Source of the DNA: Bdellovibrionales bacterium RIFOXYD12_FULL_39_22
Lineage (GTDB): Bacteria > Bdellovibrionota > Bacteriovoracia > Bacteriovoracales > Bacteriovoracaceae
Reading direction: 5' to 3'
Assembly (NCBI GenBank): GCA_001770205.1
Contig: MEQL01000012.1
Coordinates: 124,001 to 146,896 of the forward strand
Length of the DNA: 22,896 nucleotides
In this document: piece by piece, positions 4,845 through 19,950 of the stretch
Numbering within the stretch: the first letter of the stretch is position 1
Layout: each line of letters starts with the position of its first letter
The notes under the pieces: generated by a model
Database searches by the model: none
Seen by the model: the letters and a program-made list of their open reading frames with translations, nothing else
What the model was told of the DNA's origin: nothing
Made by a program: the position numbers and the translations under genes

Positions 4845-6677
4845 GTGTCTGTTTGCCAAGGGGAGCTTATTAAAAAGGTTGCACTAGTTTTTCCTACTAA
4901 AATCCGCCATGATGCCTTTTACGGTTTTGTGCTTCCTCCTCTGGGATTAGAGCGAATTGCCGCCCACCTAGAAGACATTGCCCTGGTGGAAATTTTTGAT
5001 CTGCGCTTTGAAAAAAACATTATTTCCGCCATGAAAAAATTTGCTCCTACCATAATTGGCATTAATATAAAAACCACCATGCATGCACAGGCCAACTATC
5101 GACTGGCCGTGCATATTCGAGAAAATTTTCCACACGCAACTATAGTGATGGGTGGATTGCACGCCACCCACTGCTACCAAGAGGCCTTACAATATAGCGA
5201 CTATGTCATTCGTGGCGATGGAGAGCTAAGTTTCAGACAATTTGTAGAGGGAATAGCTCCTGACAAAATTGCCGGCCTTTGCTATAAAAAAGATGACGAG
5301 CTAATTACCAATCCACTGGCCACTCCTGCAGAATCGCTAGATCTCCTTCTTCCCCCGGCCCGACATTTACGAAAGAAAAAATATTATTATGGGGCATATC
5401 CTCTTTTTCGCATGGATTTACTAGAAAGTTCACGCGGCTGCACTCACTACTGCACTTTCTGCTCCCCGGCCGCTTCATATCCGGCCTGTTATCGTACACA
5501 CTCGCCGCGCTACGTTGTTGATGAGATTAAAAGAATTGCGCAAACGGGAGTTAAATTTTGTTGGTTAACAGATGATCAACTAGGCGGTGATCTTCCTCGA
5601 CTTGAACAAATATGCGATCTACTTATTGCTGAGAAAATTACTATCTTGTTTTTTGCCTTCATCCGCCCTTTTTTAGGACAAATGGAGCTTAAAAGAAAAA
5701 TGGCACAGGCCGGATTTATCATGCTCTCCTATGGGGCAGAATCCCCCAATCCCTCACAACTGCTTCGCTACGGAAAAAACCATCCTCTTGTTGACAACTT
5801 CATTGCCAACGTTAATCGAGAATTTAAAGAGGCCCAAATTGTGCATATTGGAAACTCCTATGTATTTGGGGACCCTAAAGATTCAAAAGAGGCCATCGCC
5901 AATATTGGAATTTTTGCACGCCAGCTTGACCCCAACTTTATTGAACCTCTCTATGCACAACCATATCCAGGAACTCGCTATCGAGAAGAGCTAAAAAAGG
6001 AAGGACTTCTGCTTGATCGTCCATGGAGTGATTTTACCGAGGCCCGCCAGTTAGTGGCCCACCCACAACTTGATGAAGAAGAACTAAAAAAACTTAGAGT
6101 GAAAATTTGGTTGGATTTTTTAACACCCAAAAAATTTTTCTCGCAAATGAATGTTCCCATCTCTCTTTATCAACGCGCTAAAATATCTCGAATACGAGTG
6201 CTTCTTTTTATGAAGAGAGTGGAAAAAATTATTTTTGGCTGTTTACTGGAAGATAAAATTTACCGTGATTGCTACCGTCAAATGGTTTATGACTACTTTC
6301 ACCATCACCTTCCAAATTTTCCCAAAGAGGAGATGGATTTCACTCTCGCCATCCCAGGAATTTTAAATTTACTGGGCCTAAATTTTATTCCAAAATGGTT
6401 TAATGGCAAAACAATCTCTCTAGAAATTGTCGAATTAAAAAATGTTCTGGCCTCATTCAATCTCTGTTTTTATCAAACTAAAATCTCCAAGGCCTATGCT
6501 CTGGCCGGGAACTTGCCAGATGAAGTGCGTAGCATAAAATTTAAAATCCCCTTAGCTCTCCTGGCCTCTCGTCTGGCCACAGAATCATATCTTCTTCAAT
6601 CCTATTTTGATGTTCGCATAGTACTACAAACAATTTTTTCAAAGTTTCGCGAAGGCCTGCGCCAAATCTTTTTTTAA
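4845..6677 (+). CDS. Cobalamin (B12)-binding radical SAM enzyme with C-terminal extension
   Basis: N-terminal B12-binding domain (PPLGLERIAAHL, IVMGGLHAT, DYVIRGDGE), CxxxCxxC in SSRGCTHYCTFC, then FxxTDD-like, YGAES and PYPGT motifs. Start codon uncertain (GTG 4845 has no clear SD). Confidence 0.92.
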   Translation: MSVCQGELIKKVALVFPTKIRHDAFYGFVLPPLGLERIAAHLEDIALVEIFDLRFEKNIISAMKKFAPTIIGINIKTTMHAQANYRLAVHIRENFPHATIVMGGLHATHCYQEALQYSDYVIRGDGELSFRQFVEGIAPDKIAGLCYKKDDELITNPLATPAESLDLLLPPARHLRKKKYYYGAYPLFRMDLLESSRGCTHYCTFCSPAASYPACYRTHSPRYVVDEIKRIAQTGVKFCWLTDDQLGGDLPRLEQICDLLIAEKITILFFAFIRPFLGQMELKRKMAQAGFIMLSYGAESPNPSQLLRYGKNHPLVDNFIANVNREFKEAQIVHIGNSYVFGDPKDSKEAIANIGIFARQLDPNFIEPLYAQPYPGTRYREELKKEGLLLDRPWSDFTEARQLVAHPQLDEEELKKLRVKIWLDFLTPKKFFSQMNVPISLYQRAKISRIRVLLFMKRVEKIIFGCLLEDKIYRDCYRQMVYDYFHHHLPNFPKEEMDFTLAIPGILNLLGLNFIPKWFNGKTISLEIVELKNVLASFNLCFYQTKISKAYALAGNLPDEVRSIKFKIPLALLASRLATESYLLQSYFDVRIVLQTIFSKFREGLRQIFF

Positions 6678-7760
6678 ATCTTCCATTTCTTCCAGTCCAA
6701 AGCAAAGCCTTACTAATTTTTTGGTAATTCCCATTTGTGCCTTTTCAGCGTCATCCATAGAGGCATGACTTCCCGTATACGGACGGGCCACCATAGATGT
6801 TACACAGGCCATCCCTGTGCCAGTGCCAAATAGTTGTAGTGAATCACAAAATTTAACATAGGGATCTTCGGCCGCAAGGGCCTCGACAAATTCAAAAAAT
6901 ATAATTCCCCCGTAGGAAGTCATCTGTTTACCGTCAATGTGAGGATAATATATTTTTTTTATCTGCCTAACCTCTTTCAAAAAATCACACATTTCTACAG
7001 TAACCCGATGATGCTCTCTCATTCGCAACGGTAGTGTTTGCAGGGACCGGCGCAATAACCAGGCAGAAAAAGGAGATAAAATTGCTCCCGTATAAAAACG
7101 CTCTTGTCGCAAACTCTCTGCAATCTCTGGATTGTTGGTTAAAATAACCCCTCCCATAACGTCGCTATGGCCAGAAAAATATTTTGTTGCGCTATACAAA
7201 GAAATATCGGCACCATGTTCCAGTGGTTTTTGAAATAGTGGTGTGGCCCAAGTGTTATCTACTACCACCAGACAATTTGCACTAGTGGATTTTGCTCGGG
7301 AGGCCACCTCTTGGATATTAATCGTTTTTAAAAATGGATTAGTAGGAGTTTCAAAAACAATCATATCACAATCTGCCGGGATCTGGGCAATCCCCTCTGG
7401 CGTAGAGAGATCTAGTACTGTCAATTTTATTTTAAGTTTTTCACAAAAACGTTGAAAGAGTTTGTAGGAACAACCATAGATATATTTATTAATTAAAAGA
7501 TGCTGATGAGGACGCAATAGACCTAATACAATCGTAATAGCAGTCATACCAGTGGTAACTGCCAACGCATACTCGGCCCCTTCTAAAATTGCCACTGCCG
7601 CTTCAAACTCTGCCGAGTTGGGATTATCTTTTCTGGTATAAAAATAGGGACTACTACTTTCAAATGCCGAATTCTGAAAAATAGGCGTCACTGAAGGATC
7701 GCCTCCATCAATGCAAGTTTTTATTTTTAACATCTGAGTAATTGGAGAATTTTTTTCCAT
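6639..7760 (-). CDS. PLP-dependent Cys/Met metabolism enzyme (cystathionine gamma-synthase/lyase, methionine gamma-lyase family)
   Basis: YTRKDNPN, TGMTAI, IYGCSY, FETPTNP, VVDNTWATP, SATKYFSGHSDVMGG (PLP-binding Lys) and LVRLCFGLE. Start placed at ATG 7760 after GGTGG; the ORF track starts at 7781. Confidence 0.9.
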   Translation of the reverse strand: MEKNSPITQMLKIKTCIDGGDPSVTPIFQNSAFESSSPYFYTRKDNPNSAEFEAAVAILEGAEYALAVTTGMTAITIVLGLLRPHQHLLINKYIYGCSYKLFQRFCEKLKIKLTVLDLSTPEGIAQIPADCDMIVFETPTNPFLKTINIQEVASRAKSTSANCLVVVDNTWATPLFQKPLEHGADISLYSATKYFSGHSDVMGGVILTNNPEIAESLRQERFYTGAILSPFSAWLLRRSLQTLPLRMREHHRVTVEMCDFLKEVRQIKKIYYPHIDGKQMTSYGGIIFFEFVEALAAEDPYVKFCDSLQLFGTGTGMACVTSMVARPYTGSHASMDDAEKAQMGITKKLVRLCFGLEEMEDLKKDLAQAFAKL

Positions 7761-7918
7761 TTGCCTACCACCTTCGCCCAAAGCATAGAAAAAAAGCCTC
7801 TCGATGAAAAGGTATTTTTGTTCCTTCTTTTTCTTTTTGGGCCAATTCTGTCTTTTAATACTTGATTATCATCTCCAGATATAGGAAGCTATTTTGTAAA
7901 ATTTGAGAGGTGTACTTA

Positions 7919-8413
7919 GTGAGATTTTACCTAGTAGATAGAATTACCGAAATGGAACTGGGCAAGAGCGCCAAGGGCCTAAAATGCTGGTCACTAACCG
8001 AGGGGATCTTTAATGAACATTTCCCTGGATACCCCATCGTTCCTGGCGTTTTGGCCATTGAATCGATGGCCCAACTGCTGGGTATTTTGCTAGAAAAAAG
8101 TCATTTGGCAAATTTTGGAGAAGAACACGAGTCGTACGCCGTCTTATCTATTGTTCATAAAGCAAAATTTAAAAGTTTTTTACTTCCGGGAGATCGCGCG
8201 GAGATGGTGGGAAAACTTAATACTTTTGATATAAATCATGGCAATGGCGTGGTTGATACTTTTGTCGATGGAAAGCTTATTAGTAGTTGCGATCTTAGCT
8301 TTGTACTCATTCCAAAAAGTAAAATGCCCAACGAACGCTTAGTTGATATGAGAAATGAATATTTTAATATTCTAACGCAAGCAGAATCCCAGCGAGGCCA
8401 GACTATTTTGTGA
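7919..8413 (+). CDS. FabZ/FabA-like 3-hydroxyacyl-ACP dehydratase (accessory)
   Basis: FYLVDRI and HFPGYPIVPGVLAIESMAQ with the catalytic His and Glu intact. GTG 7919 sits 6 nt after AGAGGTG; the ORF track starts at GTG 7910. Confidence 0.9.
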   Translation: MRFYLVDRITEMELGKSAKGLKCWSLTEGIFNEHFPGYPIVPGVLAIESMAQLLGILLEKSHLANFGEEHESYAVLSIVHKAKFKSFLLPGDRAEMVGKLNTFDINHGNGVVDTFVDGKLISSCDLSFVLIPKSKMPNERLVDMRNEYFNILTQAESQRGQTIL

Positions 8414-9492
8414 AAAAACGTCTTTTTATAACAGCAGTCAGTTTTCGTATTCCAGGAGTACAATCTTTTGATGGATTAAAATATTTAAATACCCATAAGC
8501 TTCACTCTCAACCACACTTCTTAGGGCCAGATAAATCTCAAAAATTGAGCGTACACCATCTAGATATAAGTGAGTCCGCGCGCTACTACCCTTCACTCAA
8601 AGATGTAAAAGTTATGCGGGAAGATGTTTTAGCGGCGGCCATTTGCGGCCAAGAGATTTTTGAGTCAGCACAAATTCCCGCCCATCTGCGCGCCACTATT
8701 CCACTTTATATGGGAAACGGAGTCTGTCTAGACCAACTACTAGGTAGTATCAACGAAATTAGTTCCGCCTACTCTTCCCACGATTTGGGAGATGATATTG
8801 CCGCCAGACATCGAAGAGTGGAAAAGGCCACTCCCGCGCTTTTTGTCTTAAATGTTCTGACCAACGCTTCTCAAAGTTTTGTCTCTCAATATTCTGGGGC
8901 CAAAGGCGATAATACTGTTTATGGAAATAGTTCACACTCTACCGTTGATGCGCTAGAGGAGGCCATTTACACACTCTCTCAAGAAGAAGCAGAGATGGCC
9001 TTGGTCGGAGCGGCCAATGGCGCCGGACTCTTTTTTGCCTTAACCTTTCAGAATCTGGCCAATCTCTCCTCTTTCGACTGGCGACTCTCTAATGCTGCGG
9101 GCATGCTGCTTATCGAAACAGAAGAGAGCGTCAAAAAACGTCAAGCAACTCCCATAGCGGAAATTTTATCTCTTCAAAAAAGCACCACCAGGCCTTCTTT
9201 ATTTTCCAAGCAAGAGTTGATCTATAATTCGTTTCAGGAGAGATCTCAACTTGCCTATTTCTCCGGAGGCCTAGGAGAAGGAGATTATCAACTTGAGAAA
9301 AAAGTAGTTGAAGAAAAATGGAAAAAAGCTTTTAGTTATTATCCCATTTGGGGTTGCATGGGCGTATTTGCTCCCTTAATGAATATCTATGGTGCCTGTT
9401 TTCATTTACAGAGCACCTCCGAAAATATCGACTGTTTAAATAACGATCCCTATGGAAGGTCCTCCCTCATTCGTCTTGGGAGGGTAGTCTAA
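8410..9492 (+). CDS. Non-catalytic beta-ketoacyl synthase-like protein (chain-length-factor-type partner)
   Basis: KS-like segments (VLNVLTNASQSFVS...GAKGDNTVY, ALEEA...AEMALVGA, AAGMLLIETEE). NSSHS replaces TAC, SGGLG replaces HGTGT and WGCMG replaces xGH. GTGA overlap with the upstream gene. Confidence 0.75.
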   Translation: MKKRLFITAVSFRIPGVQSFDGLKYLNTHKLHSQPHFLGPDKSQKLSVHHLDISESARYYPSLKDVKVMREDVLAAAICGQEIFESAQIPAHLRATIPLYMGNGVCLDQLLGSINEISSAYSSHDLGDDIAARHRRVEKATPALFVLNVLTNASQSFVSQYSGAKGDNTVYGNSSHSTVDALEEAIYTLSQEEAEMALVGAANGAGLFFALTFQNLANLSSFDWRLSNAAGMLLIETEESVKKRQATPIAEILSLQKSTTRPSLFSKQELIYNSFQERSQLAYFSGGLGEGDYQLEKKVVEEKWKKAFSYYPIWGCMGVFAPLMNIYGACFHLQSTSENIDCLNNDPYGRSSLIRLGRVV

Positions 9493-10811
9493 TGCAAAAA
9501 GGGCAACGGGTCTTTATCGTAGATTACGATAGCTGCTCTCCACTAGGAATTGGCAACGAAAATATCATGAAATCCATTCATGATAACTATTCTGCCGGAA
9601 ATACTATCACCTCTTTTAGCACGGAAGGATTAGGCGCTACGGGGGCAGCAGAAGTCCGCGGCGACTTGGCAAAAATTTATGCCAATGAATTGCCGCAAAT
9701 AAAAAAAATGGCACACTACGATAAAAAACTTGAACTAATGGTGGCCAACTACCATCTAATGAAAACACGTTTAGAAAAAATGCTAATGCCAATTCCCGAA
9801 GAGAAAAAAGGTGTTATTTTAGGATTAGGATTAGATGTCACTCCCTTGGAAACAATTCAGGCAGAATTTTTTGCCTCTTCTACTAACCCGGCCTGGAATT
9901 ATATCAACGCTATTGAAAAATTAAATTATGGCCAAGGCCGAGTCAATACTCTTCTTAACCCACTAGACATCTCTGCCATCTACTTGGCCGAAAAACTAGG
10001 TCTGGCCGCTTTTCAAAAAACTATTTTGACTGCCTGTACGGCCTCAACGCAAGCAATTATCTACGCAACGCGAGCTCTACAAACTGGCGAGGTAGAAGCA
10101 GTTCTGGCCGGTGGAACTGATTCGATAATTAACTTGATGGCCTATTTGGCCTTCGGCAAACTCGGCGTTATGTCTACCTCTTCAGAACATCCCTCTAAAT
10201 ATTGCAAACCGTTAGATCTCGCACGCAGAGGAACGCTTATTGGAGAAGCGGCAGGCCTTTCTCTGTTGGCAAATGAGGAGGCGGTTAGCAAATATTCTTT
10301 GCCCACAAAATTTGAAATAATCGGTATGGGGAACACTCTGGATGGATATAAAATTACTGCCCCGGACCCCAAAGGCCTTGGCATGAAAGCGGCCATAGGT
10401 AATGCTGTGGCCTCCGCCCAAATTTCTGCTGAGCAAATTGACTATATAAATCTGCATGGTACTGGCACATTATCCAACGATGAAATAGAGCTACAATCTA
10501 TTGTCGAACTTTTTGAGGAAAAAGCGGCCAACATTTCTGTTAGTTCTACTAAATCACGACATGGCCATGCCATTGCCGCCGCAGGCATTCAAGAATTTAA
10601 TTTATTAATGAGTTGTATGGAAGAAAATATTGTCCCCTATAATCTCAACTTAGAAAACCCTATCAGTGTTACTCACCCCATTGATATCGTTATGCATGAA
10701 AATAAAAAGAAAAACTTAAACATTGGAATGACTAATAATTTTGCCTTTGGCGGCGTTAACAGTTCTATTATTATAAAGAAAGTTAGTTATGGATCTAGCA
10801 TTACAAAATAA
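9492..10811 (+). CDS. Beta-ketoacyl-ACP synthase (FabF-like), catalytically intact
   Basis: TACTAST (Cys), INLHGTGT (His), KSRHGHAIAAAG (His), GEAAG and NNFAFGGVN. TAATG overlap with the upstream gene. Confidence 0.93.
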   Translation: MQKGQRVFIVDYDSCSPLGIGNENIMKSIHDNYSAGNTITSFSTEGLGATGAAEVRGDLAKIYANELPQIKKMAHYDKKLELMVANYHLMKTRLEKMLMPIPEEKKGVILGLGLDVTPLETIQAEFFASSTNPAWNYINAIEKLNYGQGRVNTLLNPLDISAIYLAEKLGLAAFQKTILTACTASTQAIIYATRALQTGEVEAVLAGGTDSIINLMAYLAFGKLGVMSTSSEHPSKYCKPLDLARRGTLIGEAAGLSLLANEEAVSKYSLPTKFEIIGMGNTLDGYKITAPDPKGLGMKAAIGNAVASAQISAEQIDYINLHGTGTLSNDEIELQSIVELFEEKAANISVSSTKSRHGHAIAAAGIQEFNLLMSCMEENIVPYNLNLENPISVTHPIDIVMHENKKKNLNIGMTNNFAFGGVNSSIIIKKVSYGSSITK

Positions 10812-11550
10812 AATTGTGGCCATCACCGGATGTAATGGCGGTATCGGAGTTGCAGCAACTATCTCCTTTTTAAAAGAAGGAGCAAAAGTCGTTGGACTAT
10901 ATCGAGAGTCAATCTCCAAACTTTCAGAAATTTTTACCCGCATTAGCGAATTGGGCCTTAACGAAAAGCATTTTATGCCTATTGAAGTTGACATCAATTC
11001 CACCACTTCCATCCAAGAGGCCATAAAAAAAATCATAGCAGAATGGGGACAAATTGATGTTTTAGTAAATAATGCTGGTGCCACACTGGAAACACCATTT
11101 TTGGCCTTAAACGATGATGATTTTGAATCCATCTATGTATCCAATTTTTCCTCGCTGGCAAAAGTTAGCCGAGAAGTGGGAAAAATCATGATGCGACAAA
11201 AATTTGGTAACATAATCAATGTCTCTTCCTTGGTATCTGAACGCTTTGGCCGAGGAGTATCTGTCTATGCGGCCATGAAAGCGGCGGTTAACCGACTAAC
11301 CGAAGTAATGGCCTTAGAGATGGGGAAAAAAAATATTCGGGTTAACGCTGTATGCCCTGGTGTCGTCGAAACATCTATGAGCAATGCCCTTCAGGAGCGA
11401 CACGGCCAGATGCTAATTGAGCAAACCCCACTTAGACGGTTTGCTTCTCCCGAAGAAGTTGCCCACAGCATTTTGTTTTTATCTTCTGAGGCCACCGCCT
11501 CTTTTATAACTGGTAGTAAACTTTTTATAGACGGCGGTATACGCCTGTAA
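10789..11550 (+). CDS. 3-oxoacyl-ACP reductase (FabG-like SDR)
   Basis: TGCNGGIG Rossmann motif, LVNNAG, NVSS, YAAMK catalytic YxxxK, IRVNAVCPG and FITG...IDGG. Confidence 0.92.
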   Translation: MDLALQNKIVAITGCNGGIGVAATISFLKEGAKVVGLYRESISKLSEIFTRISELGLNEKHFMPIEVDINSTTSIQEAIKKIIAEWGQIDVLVNNAGATLETPFLALNDDDFESIYVSNFSSLAKVSREVGKIMMRQKFGNIINVSSLVSERFGRGVSVYAAMKAAVNRLTEVMALEMGKKNIRVNAVCPGVVETSMSNALQERHGQMLIEQTPLRRFASPEEVAHSILFLSSEATASFITGSKLFIDGGIRL

Positions 11551-11567
11551 CCTTTTCGTGAGGAAAT

Positions 11568-11957
11568 ATGGAACAAAATGTAATTTTTGAAAAAGTTAGA
11601 CAAGCACTTATTTCTAGTTGCAGACTTTCATCCGCAGATATCATTCCAGAAAAAACCTTAATTGAAGATCTTAATATAGACTCAATTGATCTGATCGATC
11701 TGCTTTACACTTTAGAGAAGGATTTCAACATTAGCATGAAGATAAGTGAATTTGAGACCTACGCAAAATCGGCCATTGGTGACAAACCTTTTGCGATAAA
11801 TAATATCGTTACCCCCGAAGGCCTAGAATCACTACGAAAAACGATGCCAGAAATACCTGCAGACAAAATTACTCCAGGCCTTTCGGTTGCCAAAATCCCC
11901 TACCTCTTATCCGTGCAATCACTTTGCAACATAGTAGAAAAAAAACTACAAAACTAG
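11568..11957 (+). CDS. Acyl carrier protein, long form (129 aa)
   Basis: LIEDLNIDSIDLIDLLYTLEKDFNI phosphopantetheine-site helix II pattern, terminal SVQSLCNIVEKKL helix, and GAGGA SD upstream. Confidence 0.88.
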   Translation: MEQNVIFEKVRQALISSCRLSSADIIPEKTLIEDLNIDSIDLIDLLYTLEKDFNISMKISEFETYAKSAIGDKPFAINNIVTPEGLESLRKTMPEIPADKITPGLSVAKIPYLLSVQSLCNIVEKKLQN

Positions 11958-11967
11958 CATACTCAAT

Positions 11968-13113
11968 ATGGTAAATATATATCGCCTAAAAACCAATCGC
12001 ACCCTTTTTTCCTTCGGAGAAAATATCGGGGCAGTACCAGTGGGCGATAGCACTTTGAAAGACTTTCAAGAAAAAATTGTCCACGAGGCCGGCATGACAT
12101 TACGAGAAGCAACATGCCCTGAGCAAATTGGTGATGACGATTTTTTGGCCTTTGAAGATGATCTTCTCTTCACTAAAGATTTTTTGCTGGCCGTTTTAAA
12201 CCTCCTTTCAACTCAAAATAGTAGTTGTGAATTTTATTTTTCCGACAATACTTTTAATCGTCGCTTCCTTCTTCCCTTCACCAATGACAAGCAATGGCAC
12301 TGGACATACGCTTTTCGCTACTACAAAAAAAAAGGCCCTTCTTTTTTAAAAATTTTGATCCCCCAAAAAATTTTTGAAAACCATATAAAACTTCCCTCTC
12401 AAATTGTTCCTTCCGGCAAATACCATGTAGACCAATGCGCAATCTGGATCTCAAAAATGGCATCTCCCTTTCACCTCCTTTACGCTAACTTGGCACTAAA
12501 TTTAGGACGGGCCATCAGCATACAAAACAAAATACCGCCATCTCTAACGCAGATTTTTTTTCCTCTCAACTCTCGTCCCTATTTTTGGGCGCTTCGTCGC
12601 TTAAATAAATTTGGCAAGCGAAATAAAATTCATCCCTCCGCAATTTTAGAAGGAGTAGAACTGGGCGATGATGTTACTATTGGTGCCAACTGCGTTGTGC
12701 GTATGAGCAAGCTGTGCTCCGGCACGACCTTAGAAGACAATGTAGTGATTAACTACTCCATCCTCGGTTGCAATAACTTTGTTTCTGCTGGCAATTTTAT
12801 TAATCTATGTATGAGTTATGAAAATGTGTTCTTGATTCATGGCCCCTATCAATTTTCCATTTTTGGCAAAAATGTGGCCGTCATGGCCGTAATAAATTGT
12901 GATATCAGATTGGATAACCAAGAAATAACCATTCCTACCAACGCCGGAATGATAAACTCAAGACAGCACTTACTCGGTATTGCCTATGGACATTATGCCG
13001 TGGTGGGGGCCGGAAATATTATTGCGCCTGGAAGAATTGTTCCCAATAGACTAAAGCTTCCACCGCCTGACAACATATTAACGACTAAATTCAAACAAGA
13101 GGTGCCTCTTTGA
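11968..13113 (+). CDS. Hexapeptide-repeat (left-handed beta-helix) protein, putative acyltransferase, with uncharacterised N-terminal domain
   Basis: NKIHPSAILEGVELGDDVTIGANCVV...TTLEDNVVINYSILGCNNFV and YGHYAVVGAGNIIAPGRIVP are LpxA/LpxD/GlmU-type hexapeptide repeats. Confidence 0.75.
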   Translation: MVNIYRLKTNRTLFSFGENIGAVPVGDSTLKDFQEKIVHEAGMTLREATCPEQIGDDDFLAFEDDLLFTKDFLLAVLNLLSTQNSSCEFYFSDNTFNRRFLLPFTNDKQWHWTYAFRYYKKKGPSFLKILIPQKIFENHIKLPSQIVPSGKYHVDQCAIWISKMASPFHLLYANLALNLGRAISIQNKIPPSLTQIFFPLNSRPYFWALRRLNKFGKRNKIHPSAILEGVELGDDVTIGANCVVRMSKLCSGTTLEDNVVINYSILGCNNFVSAGNFINLCMSYENVFLIHGPYQFSIFGKNVAVMAVINCDIRLDNQEITIPTNAGMINSRQHLLGIAYGHYAVVGAGNIIAPGRIVPNRLKLPPPDNILTTKFKQEVPL

Positions 13114-14162
13114 AGCGACTAACCATTTTAGGCGCCACCGGCTACACCGGAACTCTTATTTGCCAACTCTTAGAGGAAAAAAAAATTCCTTTCACTGCCG
13201 CTGTACGAAGTCTTGAAAAACTCCCCTTCTATAATCAGTTAAAAGCATCTGTTAAAGTTGATCTGGCCAACCTAAATGAAATAACTCAACTTCTAAAACA
13301 AACCGATATCTTGGTAAATTGTGTAGGGCCCTATTCTCTCTTTGGGCCGATACTAATGAAGGAGTTGCGCAAATATCCTATTTACTATCTGGATCTCTCT
13401 GGGGAGCAAAGTTTTGTTAAAAACTCTCTTGATCAACACCTTCCAAATAGTGCTTACATTATTCACTCTTGTTCTTTTGAGTCGGCACTCGTTGATCTTT
13501 TGGCCTTTAACTTTCTGGATTCTAAAAAAAATTACCATCTCATCAATTCCTTTTACTATTTTGATTCAGCAAATCCTTCTCGTGGCACTCGCTTTACAAT
13601 GAAAGTTCATGGATACTTTGACCAATTTGCTATTAATCACGGCCAGCTAATAAAAATTACACGGCCTTTTGCTCTCAACTCTCTTAACTTTCCTCAACTA
13701 GAAAATTTAACCTCAGCGCTCTTCACTCCTTATCCCGAAGTTTTATTTTTTCATAAAAACTTTCAAGTGCAAGAATGTGGAAGTTTCTTGATAATGGATG
13801 AAGCGATGATTCAATTTGCGCTGGCGCGCACCAACCACGCCCCTCCGCCTCTTGAGAGTGTGGTGGCAAAATTAGCAAACACTCAACTATCTGGGCCGGC
13901 CCCCGAAGTTCGTCAAAAGCAATTTTTTCGCATCTTCATAATGGCCGAAGAAGCGGCCGGGGTAAAAAAACTAATATCCCTTGCAGGATATGATATGTAT
14001 GGAATAACTGCCAAACTTGCCGTACAGGCCGCAGAGTTTTTATTAATAGGTGATAAAAAATTAGGCCAAACAGTTTCTCCGGCAGAAGCATTTCATGCCG
14101 ATGGCCTACTTCAAAAAATTACTCACGATGCCAATCTAAGCTCTTCATCGATTTGCTTATAG
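13110..14162 (+). CDS. Saccharopine dehydrogenase-like NAD(P)-binding oxidoreductase (candidate trans-acting enoyl reductase)
   Basis: ILGATGYTG, LVNCVGPYSLFG, YLDLSGE and CSFES motifs. TTG start overlaps the upstream stop (TTGA) and follows an AGAGGTG SD. Confidence 0.82.
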   Translation: MKRLTILGATGYTGTLICQLLEEKKIPFTAAVRSLEKLPFYNQLKASVKVDLANLNEITQLLKQTDILVNCVGPYSLFGPILMKELRKYPIYYLDLSGEQSFVKNSLDQHLPNSAYIIHSCSFESALVDLLAFNFLDSKKNYHLINSFYYFDSANPSRGTRFTMKVHGYFDQFAINHGQLIKITRPFALNSLNFPQLENLTSALFTPYPEVLFFHKNFQVQECGSFLIMDEAMIQFALARTNHAPPPLESVVAKLANTQLSGPAPEVRQKQFFRIFIMAEEAAGVKKLISLAGYDMYGITAKLAVQAAEFLLIGDKKLGQTVSPAEAFHADGLLQKITHDANLSSSSICL

Positions 14163-14172
14163 GCCGATTTTG

Positions 14173-14595
14173 CTATGGGATAGCTAATTCGGGTAAAATC
14201 ACAATTCCTTGAATTTTTTGCCGCGCAATTATATTGCCCATAGATTCCACTCCCTTTAATTCAGGTAGTGAATGAACACGTAACGTCTCAGGGGCAGAGG
14301 GAGCATCTAAAACAATCTTCTTATTGCCTACCAAAATGGAATCTACATCTTCAATATATAAAACTTCACCATTTGCAACAAAAATCTTAATAGCGGCCAT
14401 GGATGCGCGCTTACCGGCGCCGGTTAACTCGCCAGCTAAAATTTTATATCCCGACTCCTCCAAATGGATAACATCGATACCACTTCGAAGTAAAACATTT
14501 CTTACTGCCTGGCCAGCACCTGTTAATTCACCTCCAAAACTCTCCATAGAAAAGATAACTAACAAAATCAAGAGCGATAAAATTACTTTTTTCAT
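14173..14595 (-). CDS. Small secreted hypothetical protein with duplicated GELTGAG motif
   Basis: Sec signal peptide MKKVILSLLILLVIFSMESFG and an ATGA overlap with the upstream regulator. Confidence 0.75.
   Translation of the reverse strand: MKKVILSLLILLVIFSMESFGGELTGAGQAVRNVLLRSGIDVIHLEESGYKILAGELTGAGKRASMAAIKIFVANGEVLYIEDVDSILVGNKKIVLDAPSAPETLRVHSLPELKGVESMGNIIARQKIQGIVILPELAIP
14413..14532 (-). repeat. Intragenic peptide repeat GELTGAG x2 (14512-14532 and 14413-14433)
   Basis: Codons GGT GAA TTA ACA GGT GCT GGC versus GGC GAG TTA ACC GGC GCC GGT encode the same peptide. Confidence 0.85.
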
Positions 14596-15389
14596 TGTAA
14601 GACTCCAGGTTTTTTAGAAGACTCAATGGTATCTGCTAAATTGACAGTAAAATATGGAATCATCCCTTGATTACTCTCTTCTTTCATAATGGCCAAAGTC
14701 TTTTTGGCCGCCTCTCTTTGCACATCTTTAATTTTTTTTATTCCATCCTCATTCATTGATTCAGATAGTGTGTAAAAGATATTTTTATTATCACTTAACT
14801 CTTCTGGCTTGTAAAATTCTACCAACTCTTTTAAATGTTTCTTGGCCAAGAAAAGGTCTATGGAAAAATTTTTTTCCTTAGCATGAATCTCTCCGTTATT
14901 ATGAACATTAAGAAAATTGGCCTCTTTTAAAAGATCATACTTTGCCACACCAATTTCGCCAAACATCTCTTTTATTTTTGCCAGTGTTGTCCCACAGCGA
15001 TTAGCGGCCAATTTATAAATTAGATAGCTGGTAGTATCTTTTAACGCCTCATTGATCTCATCAGAAAAAACATATTCTTTGTTGTCAGTATAAACATAAC
15101 CACCAAAGGCCCGATTCAACATCTCTCCCACTGGCCCATCCACAGATTTTAGCAGAGTGGGAACTCTCTTTTCTTTATAGATCGTGCTGATAATGTTTAA
15201 TACCGTATGAGGGGCGGGTTCGTTTTTAGTAGATTGATGAATAATTCGACGTAATGTTGTTGTCCCCACTCCCGACTTTTTGGCCAATCCATTTATGCTC
15301 ATATTTGGATACCGCTCAAAATATTGATTAATTAAAACCTTCAGTTGATCATTTATGGAAGATGTTGGTTGTTGGGTTTCATTTTTCAC
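14592..15389 (-). CDS. TIGR02147/DUF4423-like protein with N-terminal XRE-type helix-turn-helix (putative transcriptional regulator)
   Basis: PNMSINGLAKKSGVGTTTLRRII HTH, a central winged-helix-like segment, and a C-terminal YTLSESMNEDGIKKIKDVQ pattern like DUF4423. GTG start after GAGGG. Family assigned from memory of the pattern, not a search. Confidence 0.7.
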   Translation of the reverse strand: MKNETQQPTSSINDQLKVLINQYFERYPNMSINGLAKKSGVGTTTLRRIIHQSTKNEPAPHTVLNIISTIYKEKRVPTLLKSVDGPVGEMLNRAFGGYVYTDNKEYVFSDEINEALKDTTSYLIYKLAANRCGTTLAKIKEMFGEIGVAKYDLLKEANFLNVHNNGEIHAKEKNFSIDLFLAKKHLKELVEFYKPEELSDNKNIFYTLSESMNEDGIKKIKDVQREAAKKTLAIMKEESNQGMIPYFTVNLADTIESSKKPGVLQ

Positions 15390-15545: not shown

Positions 15546-16340
15546 CTATCTAAAACGTAATCCGGGACGAACGGGACGCATAGGTGGCAGCGGCCGGGGA
15601 ATAGGCGGTGGCCCGACTTCTCTACCACAAACAGCAGTTTTGACCTTAAAAGTCATTAGCCCACTCATATCCTGGCTATCCAATAATATCATGGCATGGG
15701 CACGAGTGCCTGGAGTTCTGCTCATATCCATTGCTCTAATAACATTTTTTAGTTTTAGTAATACTCGATCCTCTCGATGCCCAATACAATGGCCTTTTAT
15801 CGGAATAACAGTGCGTTGAGAAACAGTCCAATTTTCATCCGTCATACCTCTCCACTTTTTCAAAAAAAATGAATCATCTTTATTAGCACTATTACGCCCA
15901 CCTCCACTCTCCCAAGACTCTAGATGGCTTTTAAATTGAGCAAACGCTCCTTCTTCAGTCATAGTATATCCACGAAAATCAGATGACACTTCTAAGGCAG
16001 AAATAACTCGTCCAGCAGGAACAACTACGGGAATTGCAATATTACATACCTTATGATCAAGCGTTATCATCCCTTTACTTTGAGCAACTGGATTATCGGC
16101 ACTTGCTTCATTATTGTCATTTTCTCCTTTGTACTGAGGAACTTCCGCAATAAAGTCATCAAAAATAATTGTCAGAACTTGCCCATCTGGACTAGTGGTA
16201 ACACTAGATGTCCCCGCGCGACAACCAGTTCCGCGCAACGTGGGATTTTCAAAGCGCATGTTTGCGGCATATCCCAAAGAAGTTGTGAGCAACAACATCC
16301 CACTAAAAACTACCATCATCTTTATAAATTTTTTACACAT
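15546..16340 (-). CDS. Secreted DUF4360-like protein (paralog 1) with Pro/Arg-rich tail
   Basis: Signal peptide, GTGCRAGT...SPDGQVLTIIFDDFIA, KVCNIAIPV and DFRGY. Start at ATG 16340 (AAGGAG SD) or ATG 16385 (AAGGAGG SD). Confidence 0.8.
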   Translation of the reverse strand: MCKKFIKMMVVFSGMLLLTTSLGYAANMRFENPTLRGTGCRAGTSSVTTSPDGQVLTIIFDDFIAEVPQYKGENDNNEASADNPVAQSKGMITLDHKVCNIAIPVVVPAGRVISALEVSSDFRGYTMTEEGAFAQFKSHLESWESGGGRNSANKDDSFFLKKWRGMTDENWTVSQRTVIPIKGHCIGHREDRVLLKLKNVIRAMDMSRTPGTRAHAMILLDSQDMSGLMTFKVKTAVCGREVGPPPIPRPLPPMRPVRPGLRFR

Positions 16341-16460
16341 CCAAATTTCTCCTTGTTCATCGTTTCTTTTGTTTGCCTTCGTCATCTCTCACCGTCCTCC
16401 TTCTTTATTAACTAAAATTTTCACAAAAAAAAACTTCTTCTATAATGTTTGAAAGCATTC

Positions 16461-16506
16461 TGCGCCACTTGGCGCATTTACTCCTAGCAATCGTCCACGT
16501 GGCGCA
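16461..16506. promoter_or_regulatory. Paired operator-like sites between the divergent DUF4360 genes
   Basis: Perfect inverted repeat TGCGCCA-CT-TGGCGCA at 16461-16476 and a second copy CCACGTGGCGCA at 16495-16506, offset by 30 bp. Confidence 0.55.
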
Positions 16507-16666
16507 CTTTTCATTACACGGCAGCAAATTGCAATTGCCGAACGAAAAATTATCAGCGATTTTGTAAGCATGATCAAAATGTGAATTCCAGGAAGGGTTC
16601 GTTTTGATAAAAAACTAAAACCTGGCCGGGAAGACAACGTGGCCTTAACCTTAGGAGGAAAAAATT

Positions 16667-17269
16667 ATGAAGTATCTACTAACATCTCTTTCACTGTTTG
16701 TTTCATTAGCACTTTTTGTCGGATCAGCAATGGCCGATGACATCTCTTTAGGAGAACCTGGATATGGTGGAACTGGCTGTCCACAAGGTTCCGCCTCCGC
16801 CACCTTGAGTCCCGATGGAAAAGAGTTAAGCATTATCTTTGACCAATTTGTTGTAGAAGCTGGAGGGGCCACACGCCGATCTATCGGTCGAAAAAGTTGT
16901 AACGTCTCTATTCCAGTTCATGTGCCAGGCGGCTTTAGTATCTCTCTAATTGATGCCGACTACCGAGGATACGTAATGCTTCCACGTAGCGCTTCTGCTA
17001 CTTTCACTGCTGAGTACTTTTTTGCCGGACAAAGAGGCCCAATGTTCTCTAAAGTTTTCTCGGGCCCAACTGATACTGACTATACTTTAGAAGATACTCT
17101 TGGAATTTTTGCTAACGTTTGGTCGGCCTGCGGTACTGACGTAAACCTACGAGTCAATGCCAGCATGCGTGTTATGACCAGATTAAATCAAGAGGCACTT
17201 GCAACTGTTGACTCTGCCGATTTCTCTGCAGGGATTGTTTACCGAATTGCCTTCCGTCGTTGCCACTAG
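16667..17269 (+). CDS. Secreted DUF4360-like protein (paralog 2)
   Basis: AGGAGG SD, signal peptide ending AMA, YGGTGCPQGSASATLSPDG...IFDQFVV, RKSCNVSIPVHVPGGFS, ADYRGY, WSACG and terminal RRC. Confidence 0.88.
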   Translation: MKYLLTSLSLFVSLALFVGSAMADDISLGEPGYGGTGCPQGSASATLSPDGKELSIIFDQFVVEAGGATRRSIGRKSCNVSIPVHVPGGFSISLIDADYRGYVMLPRSASATFTAEYFFAGQRGPMFSKVFSGPTDTDYTLEDTLGIFANVWSACGTDVNLRVNASMRVMTRLNQEALATVDSADFSAGIVYRIAFRRCH

Positions 17270-17417: not shown

Positions 17418-18233
17418 ATGAGTTTTTATCAGCGTCCCTTTGCCGATCTTCTAATTACTACGAATAAACATCTTTTAACCATTACACTTAATCGGCCAGA
17501 ACAAAGCAATGCTATCTCATTACCAATGATTGACTCCCTTAAACAGGTTCTCTCTTATGCCGATACTGATAATGAAATTCGCGTTATTATCCTAACTGGC
17601 GCGGGAAAAAGTTTTTGCGCCGGTGGAGATGTCAAGGCCATGGAAGAACAAAGTGGGATGTTTGCCGGCGAATCCAATGAATTGCGTAATCGCTATATTC
17701 AAGGAATCCAAGAAATTCCTCGCAGTATAGAAGCTCTTCAAACCCCAATTATAGCTATGGTCAACGGCCCGGCGATCGGTGCCGGCTGTGATTTATCAGT
17801 AATGTGTGATCTTCGCGTGGCCGGAAAATCTGCCAAGTTTGCCGAGACTTTTTCTAAACTATCGCTAGTTCCTGGAGATGGAGGAACTTTTTTTTTGCAA
17901 CGAGTAGTCGGCTACTCTAAGGCCATGGAGATGTTTTTAACTGGCGATAGTTATAATGGCGAACAAGCACTTGCCATGGGGCTTATAAATAAACTGTGCG
18001 ACGATAATAATCTGGAAAATGAAACCTTTGAATTGGCCACAAAAATTTCGCAAAATGGCCCTATTGCTCAGGCCATGACCAAGCAAGCATTGAAGGCCTA
18101 TAAGTTTTCGGATCTTTCTTCCCAACTAAATATGCTGGCCACCTTCCAAGGCATTGCTCAACGAACTCATGATCATCAGGAAGGGCTGGCGGCACTAAAA
18201 GAGAGACGCTCTCCTCAATTTAAAGGCAACTAA
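17418..18233 (+). CDS. Enoyl-CoA hydratase/isomerase (crotonase) family protein
   Basis: ITLNRPEQSNA, LTGAGKSFCAGGDV, IAMVNGPAIGAG, LVPGDGG and ERRSPQFKG. Confidence 0.92.
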   Translation: MSFYQRPFADLLITTNKHLLTITLNRPEQSNAISLPMIDSLKQVLSYADTDNEIRVIILTGAGKSFCAGGDVKAMEEQSGMFAGESNELRNRYIQGIQEIPRSIEALQTPIIAMVNGPAIGAGCDLSVMCDLRVAGKSAKFAETFSKLSLVPGDGGTFFLQRVVGYSKAMEMFLTGDSYNGEQALAMGLINKLCDDNNLENETFELATKISQNGPIAQAMTKQALKAYKFSDLSSQLNMLATFQGIAQRTHDHQEGLAALKERRSPQFKGN

Positions 18234-18237
18234 AATC

Positions 18238-19950
18238 ATGCGCACCTTCATTTTTAATTTTCGCCCTTATATCTCCCAGCATTGGACAAGAATTATTGGC
18301 TCAATCGTACTCTCCTTTGCCTTGGCCGGAATCAAAGGTTATCAAATATATTTGGTAAGGCCTATCTTTGATAAAGGTCTGGCCCCTAACGCTACTTTTC
18401 GCAGCATTTTTATTTTAGCATCACTGCTATTGGCACTGTCACTTATCAATTTTCCTATTCGCTTTTTGCACTTTTACTGGATCCGTTTCGTCGAAGAACG
18501 AGTAATGTGTGACTTACGTCTTAAATTAATGGCAAAATTTCAAAGACTGCCAATGTCATATTACTCTACTGCCAAACAAGGAAAACTGATTTCTGCTTTA
18601 ACCAATGATACTACCATCATTGCCCAAGGCCTTCGCGCCATTATCGATATCATTAGAGAGCCAGTTACCGCTATTATCATGTTAGGAGTGGCAATGTATC
18701 ATGATTGGCAATTGACGCTTGTAATGCTCATCGTTACTCCACTTTTTCTGGCCATTTTTATTGCCACTGGTAAAAAATTAAAACGAACACAAGAAGTTGT
18801 TCAAGAAGATTTGGCCATTATGGCCCACAATGCCACCGAAGGGATCATGGGACAAAAAATTTCCAAGGCATTTAATCTGCAAAATTATATTATTTTACGT
18901 TTTCATAAGGCCCAGGAACTTTTTTTTAAATCTAAAATCAAAACTACCTTCATTGAAGAATTCACTCATCCATTAGTAGAAGTTGTTGGCGCACTGGCCT
19001 TTTCCGGAGTAATTGTCTTCGCCCACTTTCGCATCACCTCAGGACAATTATCCACCGGAGGATTTGTCAGCTTTGTGGCCGCACTGGCCATGGTTATGGA
19101 TCCTATTCGCAAATATTCCCAGGCCAACGTTAAATTGAGTCAGGCCACCGCCGGAGGAGATCGCGTTTTCTCTCTACTGGCCTTAGATGAAGAAATAGAC
19201 CGCGGCCAACTTATGCTTGATAAATTTCATCACTCCATTGAGTTGAAAAATGTCACCTTCTCCTACGGAGAGGGCGCTATTATTAAAAATCTCTCACTTA
19301 CTATAAACAAAGGCCAAAAAGTGGCATTGATAGGTCTTTCTGGCTCTGGCAAATCGACTATAATCAATTTGCTGCTAGGCCTTTATCCCATAAATAGCGG
19401 AGAGATTCTCATTGATGGCCATCCGATAGGCTCCATTAAATTACAATCACTGCGAAAAATCTTTGGACTTGTTAGCCAAGATATCTTTTTATTCAACGAT
19501 ACCATTCGAGAAAATTTGCAGGTGGGAAAAAACATCTCTGATAAAGATCTTCAGCGTGCACTTAAAATTTCTTATGCCGATAACTTCATTCGCGAACTGC
19601 CTCGACAACTAGACACAGTAATAGGAGATCGAGGCACACGCCTTTCGGGGGGGCAACAACAACGGTTAACTATTGCCCGCGCTTTTTTACAAAACAATGA
19701 CGTACTACTTTTTGATGAGGCCACTTCGGCATTGGATAACGAATCAGAAAAAATTGTCCAACAGGCACTAGAAGAGTTAGCGCAGGAAAAAACAGTTGTG
19801 GCCGTGGCACATAGATTATCGACAATTCAAAATTACGATCAAATCTATGTTCTAAAGGCCGGAGAGCTAATTGAGCAAGGCACTCACTCTACCCTTATGG
19901 CCAATAACTCTGACTATGCTCGGCTGTATGAGCTAAGTCAGAAAGTATAA
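18238..19950 (+). CDS. MsbA-like ABC exporter (fused TMD + NBD)
   Basis: N-terminal transmembrane domain, Walker A GLSGSGKS, VSQD Q-loop, signature LSGGQQQR, Walker B/D-loop FDEATSALDNESE and AHRLSTI. Confidence 0.92.
   Translation: MRTFIFNFRPYISQHWTRIIGSIVLSFALAGIKGYQIYLVRPIFDKGLAPNATFRSIFILASLLLALSLINFPIRFLHFYWIRFVEERVMCDLRLKLMAKFQRLPMSYYSTAKQGKLISALTNDTTIIAQGLRAIIDIIREPVTAIIMLGVAMYHDWQLTLVMLIVTPLFLAIFIATGKKLKRTQEVVQEDLAIMAHNATEGIMGQKISKAFNLQNYIILRFHKAQELFFKSKIKTTFIEEFTHPLVEVVGALAFSGVIVFAHFRITSGQLSTGGFVSFVAALAMVMDPIRKYSQANVKLSQATAGGDRVFSLLALDEEIDRGQLMLDKFHHSIELKNVTFSYGEGAIIKNLSLTINKGQKVALIGLSGSGKSTIINLLLGLYPINSGEILIDGHPIGSIKLQSLRKIFGLVSQDIFLFNDTIRENLQVGKNISDKDLQRALKISYADNFIRELPRQLDTVIGDRGTRLSGGQQQRLTIARAFLQNNDVLLFDEATSALDNESEKIVQQALEELAQEKTVVAVAHRLSTIQNYDQIYVLKAGELIEQGTHSTLMANNSDYARLYELSQKV

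Follow-up and report, generated by a model that had tools for sequence, protein, structure and literature searches.

What does a compact line of type II FAS-like genes make when a PLP gene and a B12 radical SAM gene stand beside it, and is the line complete? The question is raised by a stretch of 22,896 nucleotides (the window) from Bdellovibrionales bacterium RIFOXYD12_FULL_39_22, for which an earlier note had proposed a self-contained system for elongation, reduction, and transfer of an unusual acyl chain. As described here, the window very probably carries the FAS genes of a larger conserved cluster, about 12 genes in all and dedicated to such a chain, whose other half lies on contig C25 of the same genome. 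The cluster is apparently undescribed, as no description of this gene set was found in literature titles and abstract openings.

A compact accessory operon

The genes discussed are the following (window coordinates):

4845..6677, + strand: B12-binding radical SAM enzyme, 610 aa, family B12w (Pfam B12-binding 48 bits, Radical_SAM 38 bits)
6639..7781, − strand: Cys/Met-metabolism PLP lyase (PF01053 320 bits; probable start ATG 7760)
7910..8413, + strand: FabZ-like dehydratase (PF07977 56 bits; probable start GTG 7919)
8410..9492, + strand: Cys-less ketosynthase-fold protein, 360 aa (weak FabF matches; KS folds by profile, E 3.5e-6)
9492..10811, + strand: active ketosynthase, 439 aa (Cys-His-His triad)
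10789..11550, + strand: FabG-like ketoreductase (TIGR01830 204 bits; NNAG and YxxxK motifs)
11568..11957, + strand: long acyl carrier protein, 129 aa (PF00550; Ser39 in DSID)
11968..13113, + strand: GlmU/ST0452-like protein, 381 aa (degenerate nucleotidyltransferase-like N-domain and left-handed beta-helix)
13110..14162, + strand: saccharopine-dehydrogenase-like NAD(P)H reductase, 350 aa (PF03435 25.3 bits, cut-off 25.1)

The last seven of these (7910–14162) are co-oriented open reading frames for FabA/FabZ-like, KS-like, KS, SDR/KR, ACP, hexapeptide, and NAD-binding reductase proteins, and the successive intergenic distances of −4, −1, −23, +17, +10, and −4 bp confirm the earlier description of genes that overlap or sit no more than 17 bp apart. 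The same is true of the reported absence of fabD, fabH, and plsX, none of which was matched among the 19 window proteins scanned, and of the adjacency of the PLP and B12 radical SAM genes, which overlap convergently by 39 bp; the PLP gene is divergent from fabZ. Conserved N-termini suggest the starts listed for the PLP gene and fabZ. Between positions 4000 and 15500 the window has no differences from one public contig, possibly the source record of the same DNA. Because a search baited with the beta-helix protein brought up 39 non-redundant loci and the same families occur together at 24 of them, the arrangement is not due to chance.

Housekeeping FAS II was considered as an identity for these genes and rejected. 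The genome carries fabD-fabG-acpP-fabF on C37, fabH on C39, and fabZ-lpxA on C48, and the window KS belongs to a separate, cluster-specific clade of 30 rows (SH-like support 100, stem 1.18), in agreement with the accessory role first proposed.

Several of the encoded proteins depart from their nearest models. The FabZ-like protein scores 88 bits against the FabZ model, below the cut-off of 113, with HFP and PGVLAIE motifs present. All 22 aligned orthologues of the KS keep its triad (Cys182/His322/His357) unchanged. Its partner, whose gene adjoins the KS gene as in KS/CLF type II PKS systems, has Ser175 where the catalytic Cys is expected and is, by analogy, a candidate chain-length factor; its earlier description as a dead KS holds here and for the 20 of 24 orthologues in which this Cys is absent, but not for the four that retain it. 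The ACP has a C-terminal extension of about 50 aa, conserved in 28 orthologues, and its PDB matches reach at most about residues 1–93.

The protein previously called a beta-helix transferase does contain the helix, with an architecture of the GlmU/ST0452 rather than the LpxA/LpxD type. Its best folds are GlmU/ST0452/GMPP (AlphaFold pLDDT 92.8; best Foldseek match ST0452, E 1e-9, TM 0.5). An identity as LpxA or LpxD was rejected given scores of 21–22 bits against cut-offs of 207–231 and a different domain layout; the genome's own lpxA is on C48. Six residues (H169, H222, H291, D312, R314, and H342) are invariant in an alignment of 55 homologues, and the protein is a candidate acyltransferase. 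The reductase, for which a PDB search gave no informative match, is from its borderline Pfam match a candidate trans-acting enoyl reductase; its orthologue at locus L003 scores 37.5 bits against PF03435. Mycobacterial Rv2953, whose annotation names both saccharopine dehydrogenase and a putative trans-acting enoyl reductase (PMC3089613), likewise places such a domain within a lipid biosynthesis cluster, a likeness drawn through a borderline shared Pfam match.

The other half of the cluster

Found in Bdellovibrionota and Bacteroidota, the conserved cluster comprises genes for FabZ, the Cys-less KS, KS, KR, the 129-aa ACP, the GlmU-like protein, the saccharopine-dehydrogenase-like reductase, MMPL, IorAB, an AmrS-type radical SAM enzyme, and the PLP lyase. 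In the study genome, C25 carries IorAB, MMPL, a partner of about 520 aa, and the AmrS-type gene, so that the line in the window is not self-contained as had been supposed. The C25 genes include the genome's best IorA, IorB, MMPL, and AmrS matches, and their closest fetched homologues (41–79% identity) are in genome G261, where both halves of the cluster are contiguous.

The cluster is rare and patchy: two samples of 401 genomes each contained it 6 times. Nineteen of the 24 loci with core genes are fully visible, and the other five stop at contig ends. One locus, L101, ends right after the PLP gene, so one more gene there could be unseen. All 19 uncut clusters have both AmrS and PLP genes, the PLP gene directly following the AmrS-type gene in 18; in the exception, G261, a 97-aa AmrS module is on the other side of the PLP gene with the B12 gene in between. 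Eighteen of the 19 encode an enzyme that decarboxylates 2-oxoacids (IorAB in 16, E1 in 2), indicating non-orthologous replacement at this step, and the remaining full cluster, L088, has neither in view.

The AmrS-type enzyme resembles the AmrS of the AmmeMemoRadiSam system in passing the TIGR04337 cut-off (278–290 bits against 220) and has a PFL-activating-enzyme-like fold (Z 20). That system was rejected as an identity, however, because the AMMECR1/AmrA partner (PF01871) is missing from all five cluster genomes searched (controls positive in 5 of 14). The cluster type further differs in its location in biosynthetic clusters and in an extra C-terminal beta module of about 100 aa ending in DRAH(F/Y)P, either fused or encoded separately.

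The PLP lyase is a fold-type I enzyme with the SATK lysine motif, as in methionine/cystathionine gamma-lyases, and its family conserves the motifs YGC and GTGMA. It falls below the CGL, MGL, and CGS cut-offs (260 against 550 for MGL, 264 against 594 for CGL), and with GTGMA replacing the ESLGG loop, assignment as a standard methionine/cystathionine gamma-lyase was rejected.

One proposed tailoring slot, two types of enzyme

A di-iron desaturase is encoded in 16 of the 19 full clusters (6 DesA-like, 10 of a second type) while the other three encode a radical SAM enzyme of the B12 kind, and no cluster has both or neither (Fisher p = 0.001, a value overstated by kinship among the clusters). The two B12 families in this slot are mutually only about 25% identical, and starred tree branches require at least two changes for the second. 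The proposed link of the PLP and radical SAM genes to the operon is thus borne out for both, the former as a core gene in all 19 clusters and the latter as a variable one in 3. Among the radical SAM enzymes, it is the AmrS type, which does not bind B12, that accompanies the cluster as a conserved partner; the B12 enzyme put forward earlier as the tailoring candidate is a variable part that alternates with the desaturase.

The B12w enzyme has its CxxxCxxC motif at 199, and its best NCBIfam match is BchE. In BchE/AcsF-type pairs, the same step is performed by either a B12 radical SAM enzyme or a di-iron enzyme that depends on O2. The cluster resembles such pairs in this match and in the mutual exclusion of the two enzyme types, but the score is 123 bits against a cut-off of 481, the substrate is presumably an acyl chain, and the equivalence is drawn from gene patterns only. 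An orthologue (61%) is found in one of 236 other family genomes, G261, there too beside the PLP gene, and about 45 other full-length homologues are 44–63% identical. In three of five named Riflebacteria/Wallbacteria records, B12w and the short AmrS type are 5, 9, and 14 accession numbers apart, with contigs of equal length; in two of the five, B12w and AmrS are on different contigs.

Genome-wide, PF00487 (desaturase) has no match in the study genome or G261 and is matched in the desaturase-type genomes G237 and G313; the study genome carries the B12 gene but lacks a desaturase. Its sole COX1-family protein carries HLWVE, the nitric oxide reductase motif. An account based on O2 is not clean, because G313 has a cluster desaturase yet no COX1-family match.

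An anaerobic lifestyle by itself might account both for the missing desaturase and for the B12 enzyme. In a doubtful but appreciable alternative, the B12 enzyme would be a C-methyltransferase or ring former adding a branch; this would mimic the double bond only physically, or else would coincide with desaturase loss because the two follow anaerobic life. The picture of the cluster would be unchanged. B12w homologues come from lineages presumed to be anaerobic, and the HpnR, HpnJ, and P-methylase models give scores of similar order to that of BchE. Moreover, the majority of cobalamin-dependent radical SAM enzymes carry methylase annotations, with oxidations and cyclisations also known (PMC13459092, which cites BchE as well). 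Methylation or cyclisation of the chain, as first suggested, is one of two readings of the B12 enzyme. Against it stands the strict choice of one enzyme type or the other in all 19 full clusters, each type being represented by two unrelated families, for which a single required step is the simpler account.

A proposed pathway

Gene content and order, catalytic residues, the KS clade, the division between two contigs, and the alternation of desaturase and B12 enzyme are observations. The full chain of biosynthetic steps, from priming through export, is predicted from them and is plausible, if not quite probable. The AmrS-type enzyme and PLP lyase would convert an amino acid, probably a sulfur-containing or radically modified one, to a 2-oxoacid. 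Its decarboxylation by IorAB, whose place an E1-type dehydrogenase subunit takes in some clusters, would yield an acyl-CoA primer, replacing FabH. The radical enzymes may, in addition, receive reduced ferredoxin from IorAB. By analogy, KS and its Cys-less partner would form a KS/CLF-like heterodimer working on the long ACP, with malonyl-ACP loaded through FabD borrowed from the host; KR, FabZ, and the saccharopine-dehydrogenase-like reductase would complete a full reductive cycle. The single tailoring slot would be served mostly by a membrane di-iron desaturase and elsewhere, including the study genome, by the B12 radical SAM enzyme, most simply an O2-independent stand-in. The GlmU-like protein would then move the acyl group onto an acceptor, and MMPL would export the product. 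In two Paenibacillales genomes the split AmrS type adjoins aminotransferase and NRPS genes, which is consistent with amino-acid chemistry. The further proposal of a new lipid class, AmrS-primed or AmrS-sulfur-modified, with the B12 enzyme as an O2-independent acyl desaturase/oxidase carrying out the chemistry of the di-iron desaturase it replaces, is speculative and on balance unlikely; if true, it would give the AmrS family its first biosynthetic role.

Another rather unlikely scheme casts the PLP enzyme as a C–S lyase releasing sulfide, methanethiol, or persulfide, with AmrS inserting sulfur into the (unsaturated) acyl chain to give a thioether or sulfur ring and IorAB mainly clearing the 2-oxoacid by-product and reducing ferredoxin. 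The retained YGC, the Cys116 signature of methionine gamma-lyase, speaks for such chemistry, but the replaced cystathionine-lyase loop speaks against it. In G054, G115, and L100, AmrS-PLP-desaturase-beta-helix sets of four genes occur with core FAS and Ior genes not in view, so that chain tailoring fits these sets better than priming, a point for this scheme and against the pathway above. Against the scheme, ferredoxin supply is impossible for E1 subunits, and the Paenibacillales AmrS loci have no C–S lyase in view. Two MiaB-like methylthiotransferase homologues (200–236 bits, below the cut-off of 251) on the C25 half favour sulfur chemistry, but none turned up in the other fetched loci.

It is very unlikely that the cluster genes of the study genome are a broken remnant, as might be suggested by the separate contigs, the unrelated genes flanking each half, and the division of AmrS into 359 and 97 aa. 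Every ORF is intact with catalytic residues conserved, the identical AmrS split occurs in G261 and two Paenibacillales genomes, and there are about 100 stand-alone homologues of about 360 aa.

Comparison with known systems

The highly reducing KS/CLF type II PKS systems (aryl polyene, ishigamide) share with the cluster a KS with a non-catalytic KS-fold partner, a stand-alone ACP, KR, DH, and an MMPL exporter. The cluster differs in its candidate enoyl reductase, its 129-aa ACP, its radical SAM/PLP/2-oxoacid module, and the lack of a core adenylation enzyme. Its KS scores 113 and 105 bits against the structures presumed to represent these systems (PDB 6qsp and 6kxd), below the 176 bits for plain FabF.

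The rhizobial acpXL-fabZXL-fabF2XL-fabF1XL-adhA2XL-lpxXL cluster for very-long-chain fatty acids similarly combines two KS-fold genes with FabZ and an ACP of its own. The lipid A analogy offered earlier nevertheless fails on KS clade, ACP type, and accessory genes. The KS proteins of acpXL-fabZ-type loci (13 rows, labeled from neighbourhood and host) group in a clade distinct from that of the 30 cluster rows, and AcpXL-type ACPs are about 92–101 aa long, against 129 aa here; on PRK06508, the presumed AcpXL model, the window ACP scores 35 bits versus 83, and its top PDB match (32 bits) covers residues 7–81 only. Among the 19 window proteins, no Pfam match to LpxXL acyltransferase or AdhA2XL dehydrogenase was obtained, nor was any such conserved neighbour family recognised.

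Anammox cluster I (kuste3603–3608) encodes amxACP, amxFabZ, amxFabF2, amxFabFmut, a phytoene dehydrogenase homologue, and a B12 radical SAM enzyme; an anammox FabF partner that lacks the Cys takes part in a heterodimer of the KS/CLF kind (bioRxiv 10.64898/2026.05.19.726425). Both systems have an ACP and FabZ of their own, pair an active KS with a triad-less one, include a B12 radical SAM gene, and lack FabH within the cluster. The earlier ladderane analogy nevertheless fails on other genes that define the anammox cluster: the B12 enzyme scores 69 bits (68.9) against 360 for TIGR04072 and is missing from 16 of 19 full clusters, and no phytoene dehydrogenase homologue was found among the window or C25 proteins scanned. 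Core genes for KR, the GlmU-like protein, the reductase, MMPL, IorAB, AmrS, and the PLP lyase go beyond anammox cluster I. The KS scores 147 bits against 9s5h_B, presumably an anammox protein, and 176 against Thermus-type FabF; the KS tree has no identified amxFabF2 row.

A lipid A secondary-acyl or ladderane-like pathway is a very unlikely alternative, suggested by 'specialized' ACPs as best PDB matches of the ACP (32 bits, residues 6–81), by the gene content shared with anammox cluster I, and by an MsbA-like gene about 4 kb downstream, but opposed by a KS clade apart from both acpXL-type and TIGR04072-locus KS, by window proteins lacking lipid A acyltransferase, Zn-ADH, and phytoene dehydrogenase matches, and by the occurrence of the MsbA-like family in just 5 of 49 neighbourhoods. 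The system, accessory and type II FAS/PKS-like, matches none of the known systems compared.

Implications

Three protein groups that are poorly understood can be studied in the compact setting of this cluster: radical SAM enzymes of the AmrS type that lack the partners they usually have, GlmU-like beta-helix proteins with no functional nucleotidyltransferase motif, and 130-aa ACPs accompanied by a Cys-less KS. Given its rare and patchy occurrence, the cluster might also make a lipid that marks particular lineages. That a B12 radical enzyme occupies the slot of an O2-requiring desaturase in relatives suggests an O2-free lipid modification, and the alternation predicts either radical, O2-free desaturation or oxidation of the acyl chain or a methyl branch that replaces the double bond.

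Two Halves of One Cluster

The genome of Bdellovibrionales bacterium RIFOXYD12_FULL_39_22 (3.95 Mb, 39% GC) carries the operon on contig C12, of which the window is the end, and the closest matches of its KS and neighboring proteins are Bacteriovoracaceae records. The seven same-strand genes claimed in an earlier note are indeed present, with gaps of -4, -1, -23, +17, +10, and -4 bp, as is the pairing of a dead with an active KS: the triad C182/H322/H357 is invariant across 22 orthologues of the KS, and in the KS-like protein Ser replaces the catalytic Cys, which is missing in 20 of 24 orthologues. The two adjacent genes were also confirmed; the PLP gene and fabZ are divergent, and the B12 radical SAM gene is convergent on the PLP gene. 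The idea of a self-contained line, however, has to be given up: the operon in the window is half of a cluster, because genes on contig C25 complete it and in a relative, G261, the two halves are contiguous. The proteins of this single G261 block are the closest matches to both halves among those fetched. The halves are as follows.

Window 7910-14162, all on one strand: FabZ-like protein, KS-like protein, KS, KR, 129-aa ACP, hexapeptide-repeat (beta-helix) protein, reductase
C25 6004-18646, second half in the same genome: iorB, iorA, 519-aa protein, MMPL, split AmrS gene

Inserted in the C25 half (8368-13389; L157:3369-8390) are an HgcAB-like corrinoid fusion (308 bits against a cut-off of 285), two methyltransferases, and two MiaB-like radical SAM genes; at another locus, L090, an HgcAB-like homologue (34%) adjoins the beta-helix gene. 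Scans for promoters (22 found, 22.5 expected) and terminators (12 found, 9.3 expected) were at chance. The sequencing runs listed as containing the DNA include no RNA run, the DNA runs being groundwater and soil metagenomes, most of them possibly its sources.

Beyond the operon, window 14173-15389 encodes two proteins without a family match, one of 265 aa whose N terminus looks helix-turn-helix-like and a secreted-looking one of 140 aa with an internally repeated GELTGAG motif. Two divergent DUF4360 secreted-protein genes follow (15546-17269), and then a two-gene unit (17418-19950) of enoyl-CoA hydratase and MsbA-like ABC transporter (480 against 602 bits), which is not kept beside the cluster elsewhere.

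Conservation and Separation from Housekeeping Synthesis

As bait in GTDB genomes the KS drew mostly generic FabF, with only three close relatives among 80 loci, and the beta-helix protein was therefore chosen as marker. It was found in 6 of 401 genomes of the organism's own phylum, in 6 of 401 of the order of genome G401, and at 38 metagenome loci; named homologues come from Crocinitomicaceae, Salibacteraceae, and Phaeodactylibacter. Dereplication at 90% left 39 loci. A KS is visible in 24. In 19 of these (the full clusters) it is joined by the Cys-less KS and by the AmrS and PLP genes, and the remaining five end at contig ends. The cluster is real and conserved, with the recurrent order fabZ, Cys-less KS, KS, KR, ACP, beta-helix, reductase, desaturase, MMPL, iorA, iorB, AmrS type, PLP lyase. 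At L088 (5771-7801) the operon is broken between KS and KR by an opposite-strand gene of 676 aa. Locus L003 (VHBC01000005.1), titled Sphingomonadales, has flanks that by eye are Bacteroidota-like and a cluster that groups with those of G491, G540, and G790, a possible mislabel.

That the line is accessory to housekeeping fatty acid synthesis, as earlier proposed, is borne out by the genome's own fabD-fabG-acpP-fabF on C37, fabH on C39, and fabZ-lpxA on C48, and by the KS phylogeny. In a FastTree analysis of 114 KS rows, which gave long-branch warnings, 30 cluster KS form a single clade (SH-like 100, stem 1.18) that excludes the genome's own FabF, 13 acpXL-type rows, and the KS of TIGR04072 loci, which, fetched from Planctomycetota, contained no identifiable anammox cluster I and were used as outgroups only. 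Locus L078, automatically labeled a cluster member from a weak 42-bit match, falls outside the clade and represents a different cluster.

The rhizobial acpXL cluster comprises acpXL, fabZXL, fabF2XL, fabF1XL, adhA2XL, and lpxXL. The likenesses to it and to anammox clusters that had been suggested were not sustained: the cluster belongs neither to the acpXL system, from whose KS rows its own stand apart, nor, apparently, to anammox cluster I as described in bioRxiv 10.64898/2026.05.19.726425. It is not a member of the AmmeMemoRadiSam system either. In how it works it may resemble a highly reducing KS/CLF type II system. The gene set is apparently undescribed, at least in the freely accessible literature that was searched.

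Two further accessory clusters occur in the genome. One, a FAS II cluster (C35:119901-135075, L158), has IorAB, MMPL, a ~515-aa protein, two KR, FabZ, KS-like, KS, a Tes-like radical SAM (292 against 450 bits), a 761-aa B12 radical SAM of a second family, and a long ACP alignable with that of the window over its entire length. The other (C41:62806-79135, L159), with labels partly by eye, has MMPL, AMP-ligase-like, two KR, KS, ACP, KS-like, FabZ, and asparagine-synthetase-like genes.

Proposed Priming and Release of the Chain

Of the 19 full clusters, 16 have IorAB, two have an E1 dehydrogenase subunit, and one has neither. The PLP protein has a gamma-lyase fold, scores below all equivalog cut-offs, and keeps YGC, presumably corresponding to Cys116 of MGL, while ESLGG has become GTGMA. 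A lyase yielding a 2-oxoacid, an enzyme converting 2-oxoacid to acyl-CoA, and the lack of FabH together suggest that the line is primed by an amino-acid-derived unit: the PLP lyase would form the 2-oxoacid and the 2-oxoacid enzyme the acyl-CoA that starts the chain. A rival is that the lyase donates sulfur for radical sulfur insertion. Sets of AmrS, PLP, desaturase, and beta-helix genes without the fatty acid synthesis genes (G054, G115, L100) favor it, as do the two MiaB-like genes on C25, although the latter were found in no other fetched locus.

The predicted model of the beta-helix protein (pLDDT 92.8) matches two-domain ST0452/GlmU proteins (E 1e-9, TM 0.5). Its invariant residues gather in two places, the helix between the domains and the beta-helix, and its alignment contains no conserved glycine-rich nucleotide motif; it is a putative acyl transferase. 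Its look-alikes in the Atlas are unnamed Myxococcota and Chloroflexota clusters. At L100 (5022-10041) and L120 (11187-19372) the gene stands with a different cassette in place of the KS pair, labeled by eye as sterol-desaturase-like, adenylate-forming, FabH-like, SDR, and metallo-beta-lactamase. The reductase is a borderline match to saccharopine dehydrogenase, the domain of the putative enoyl reductase Rv2953 (PMC3089613).

The Conserved Radical SAM Enzyme

The radical SAM enzyme conserved in the cluster is of AmrS type (TIGR04337, 278-290 bits against a cut-off of 220), with a PFL-activase-like core and an extra module ending in DRAH(F/Y)P, for which a search within the larger protein gave no fold match. 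AMMECR1 is absent from all five cluster genomes searched, so that the enzyme does not act in the canonical three-gene system. On plasmids only distant AmrS proteins (30-36%) were found. A search of Paenibacillaceae was empty (0/136), and one across the order Paenibacillales gave two of 401 genomes, G1484 and G1548 (L172-L175). Here split AmrS genes are divergent from cupin, aminotransferase, a three-module NRPS of 3.5-3.9 kaa, MFS, and SDR genes; the NRPS specificity codes point, though not decisively, to Thr, an ornithine-like residue, and Asp/Asn. In G1484 a YczE-like membrane gene, of a family also present in three FAS-type clusters, follows the split genes.

One Proposed Slot, Different Enzymes

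The proposed link of the B12 enzyme to the operon stands in part. The enzyme occurs in two of 237 genomes of the family and adjoins the PLP gene in both, yet only three of the 19 full clusters carry any B12 radical SAM. An initial reading of the gene as unrelated to the cluster was dropped after evidence from G261, the family genomes, homologues, and shared records. There are about 45 further full-length homologues, and those with a taxon name belong to Riflebacteria and Wallbacteria; in three of five named records the homologue lies 5-14 accession numbers from a short AmrS type and in two on a separate contig. For three further B12 homologues and beta-helix homologues, the longest contigs are equal in size (6721, 15024, 23021), a proxy judged by eye. 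The C-terminal 155 aa of the B12 enzyme had no usable Atlas match, which leaves the guess of an SCP2-like lipid-binding domain there unsupported. Elsewhere in the genome (C57:61267-69971, L161) four B12 radical SAM genes of the second family stand in tandem, with an MMPL gene divergent from them.

The proposed tailoring slot is filled in the 19 full clusters by a DesA-like desaturase (six), a second desaturase type, often MMPL-fused (ten), or a B12 radical SAM (three: G261, whose enzyme is of the window's family, and L088 and L101, whose enzymes are of the second, ~25% identical); desaturase and B12 enzyme never occur together and are never both missing. The significance of the alternation (Fisher p = 0.001) is overstated by the non-independence of kin, and the four slot labels require eight changes on the beta-helix tree. 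Genome-wide, PF00487 has no match in this genome or G261 and is present in G237 and G313. The sole COX1-family protein here, without an NCBIfam match, has HLWVE, a motif of nitric oxide reductases. G313, with a desaturase and no COX1-family match, counts against a clean oxygen story.

The BchE/AcsF pairing is a known case of this kind. Most simply, the pattern would reflect a single tailoring step that is required and can proceed with or without O2; nearly as likely, a methyl branch stands in for the double bond. On the former reading, it is possible, if rather doubtful, that the B12 enzyme is an oxygen-independent radical desaturase and, jointly, that the cluster would provide the first biosynthetic role for AmrS.
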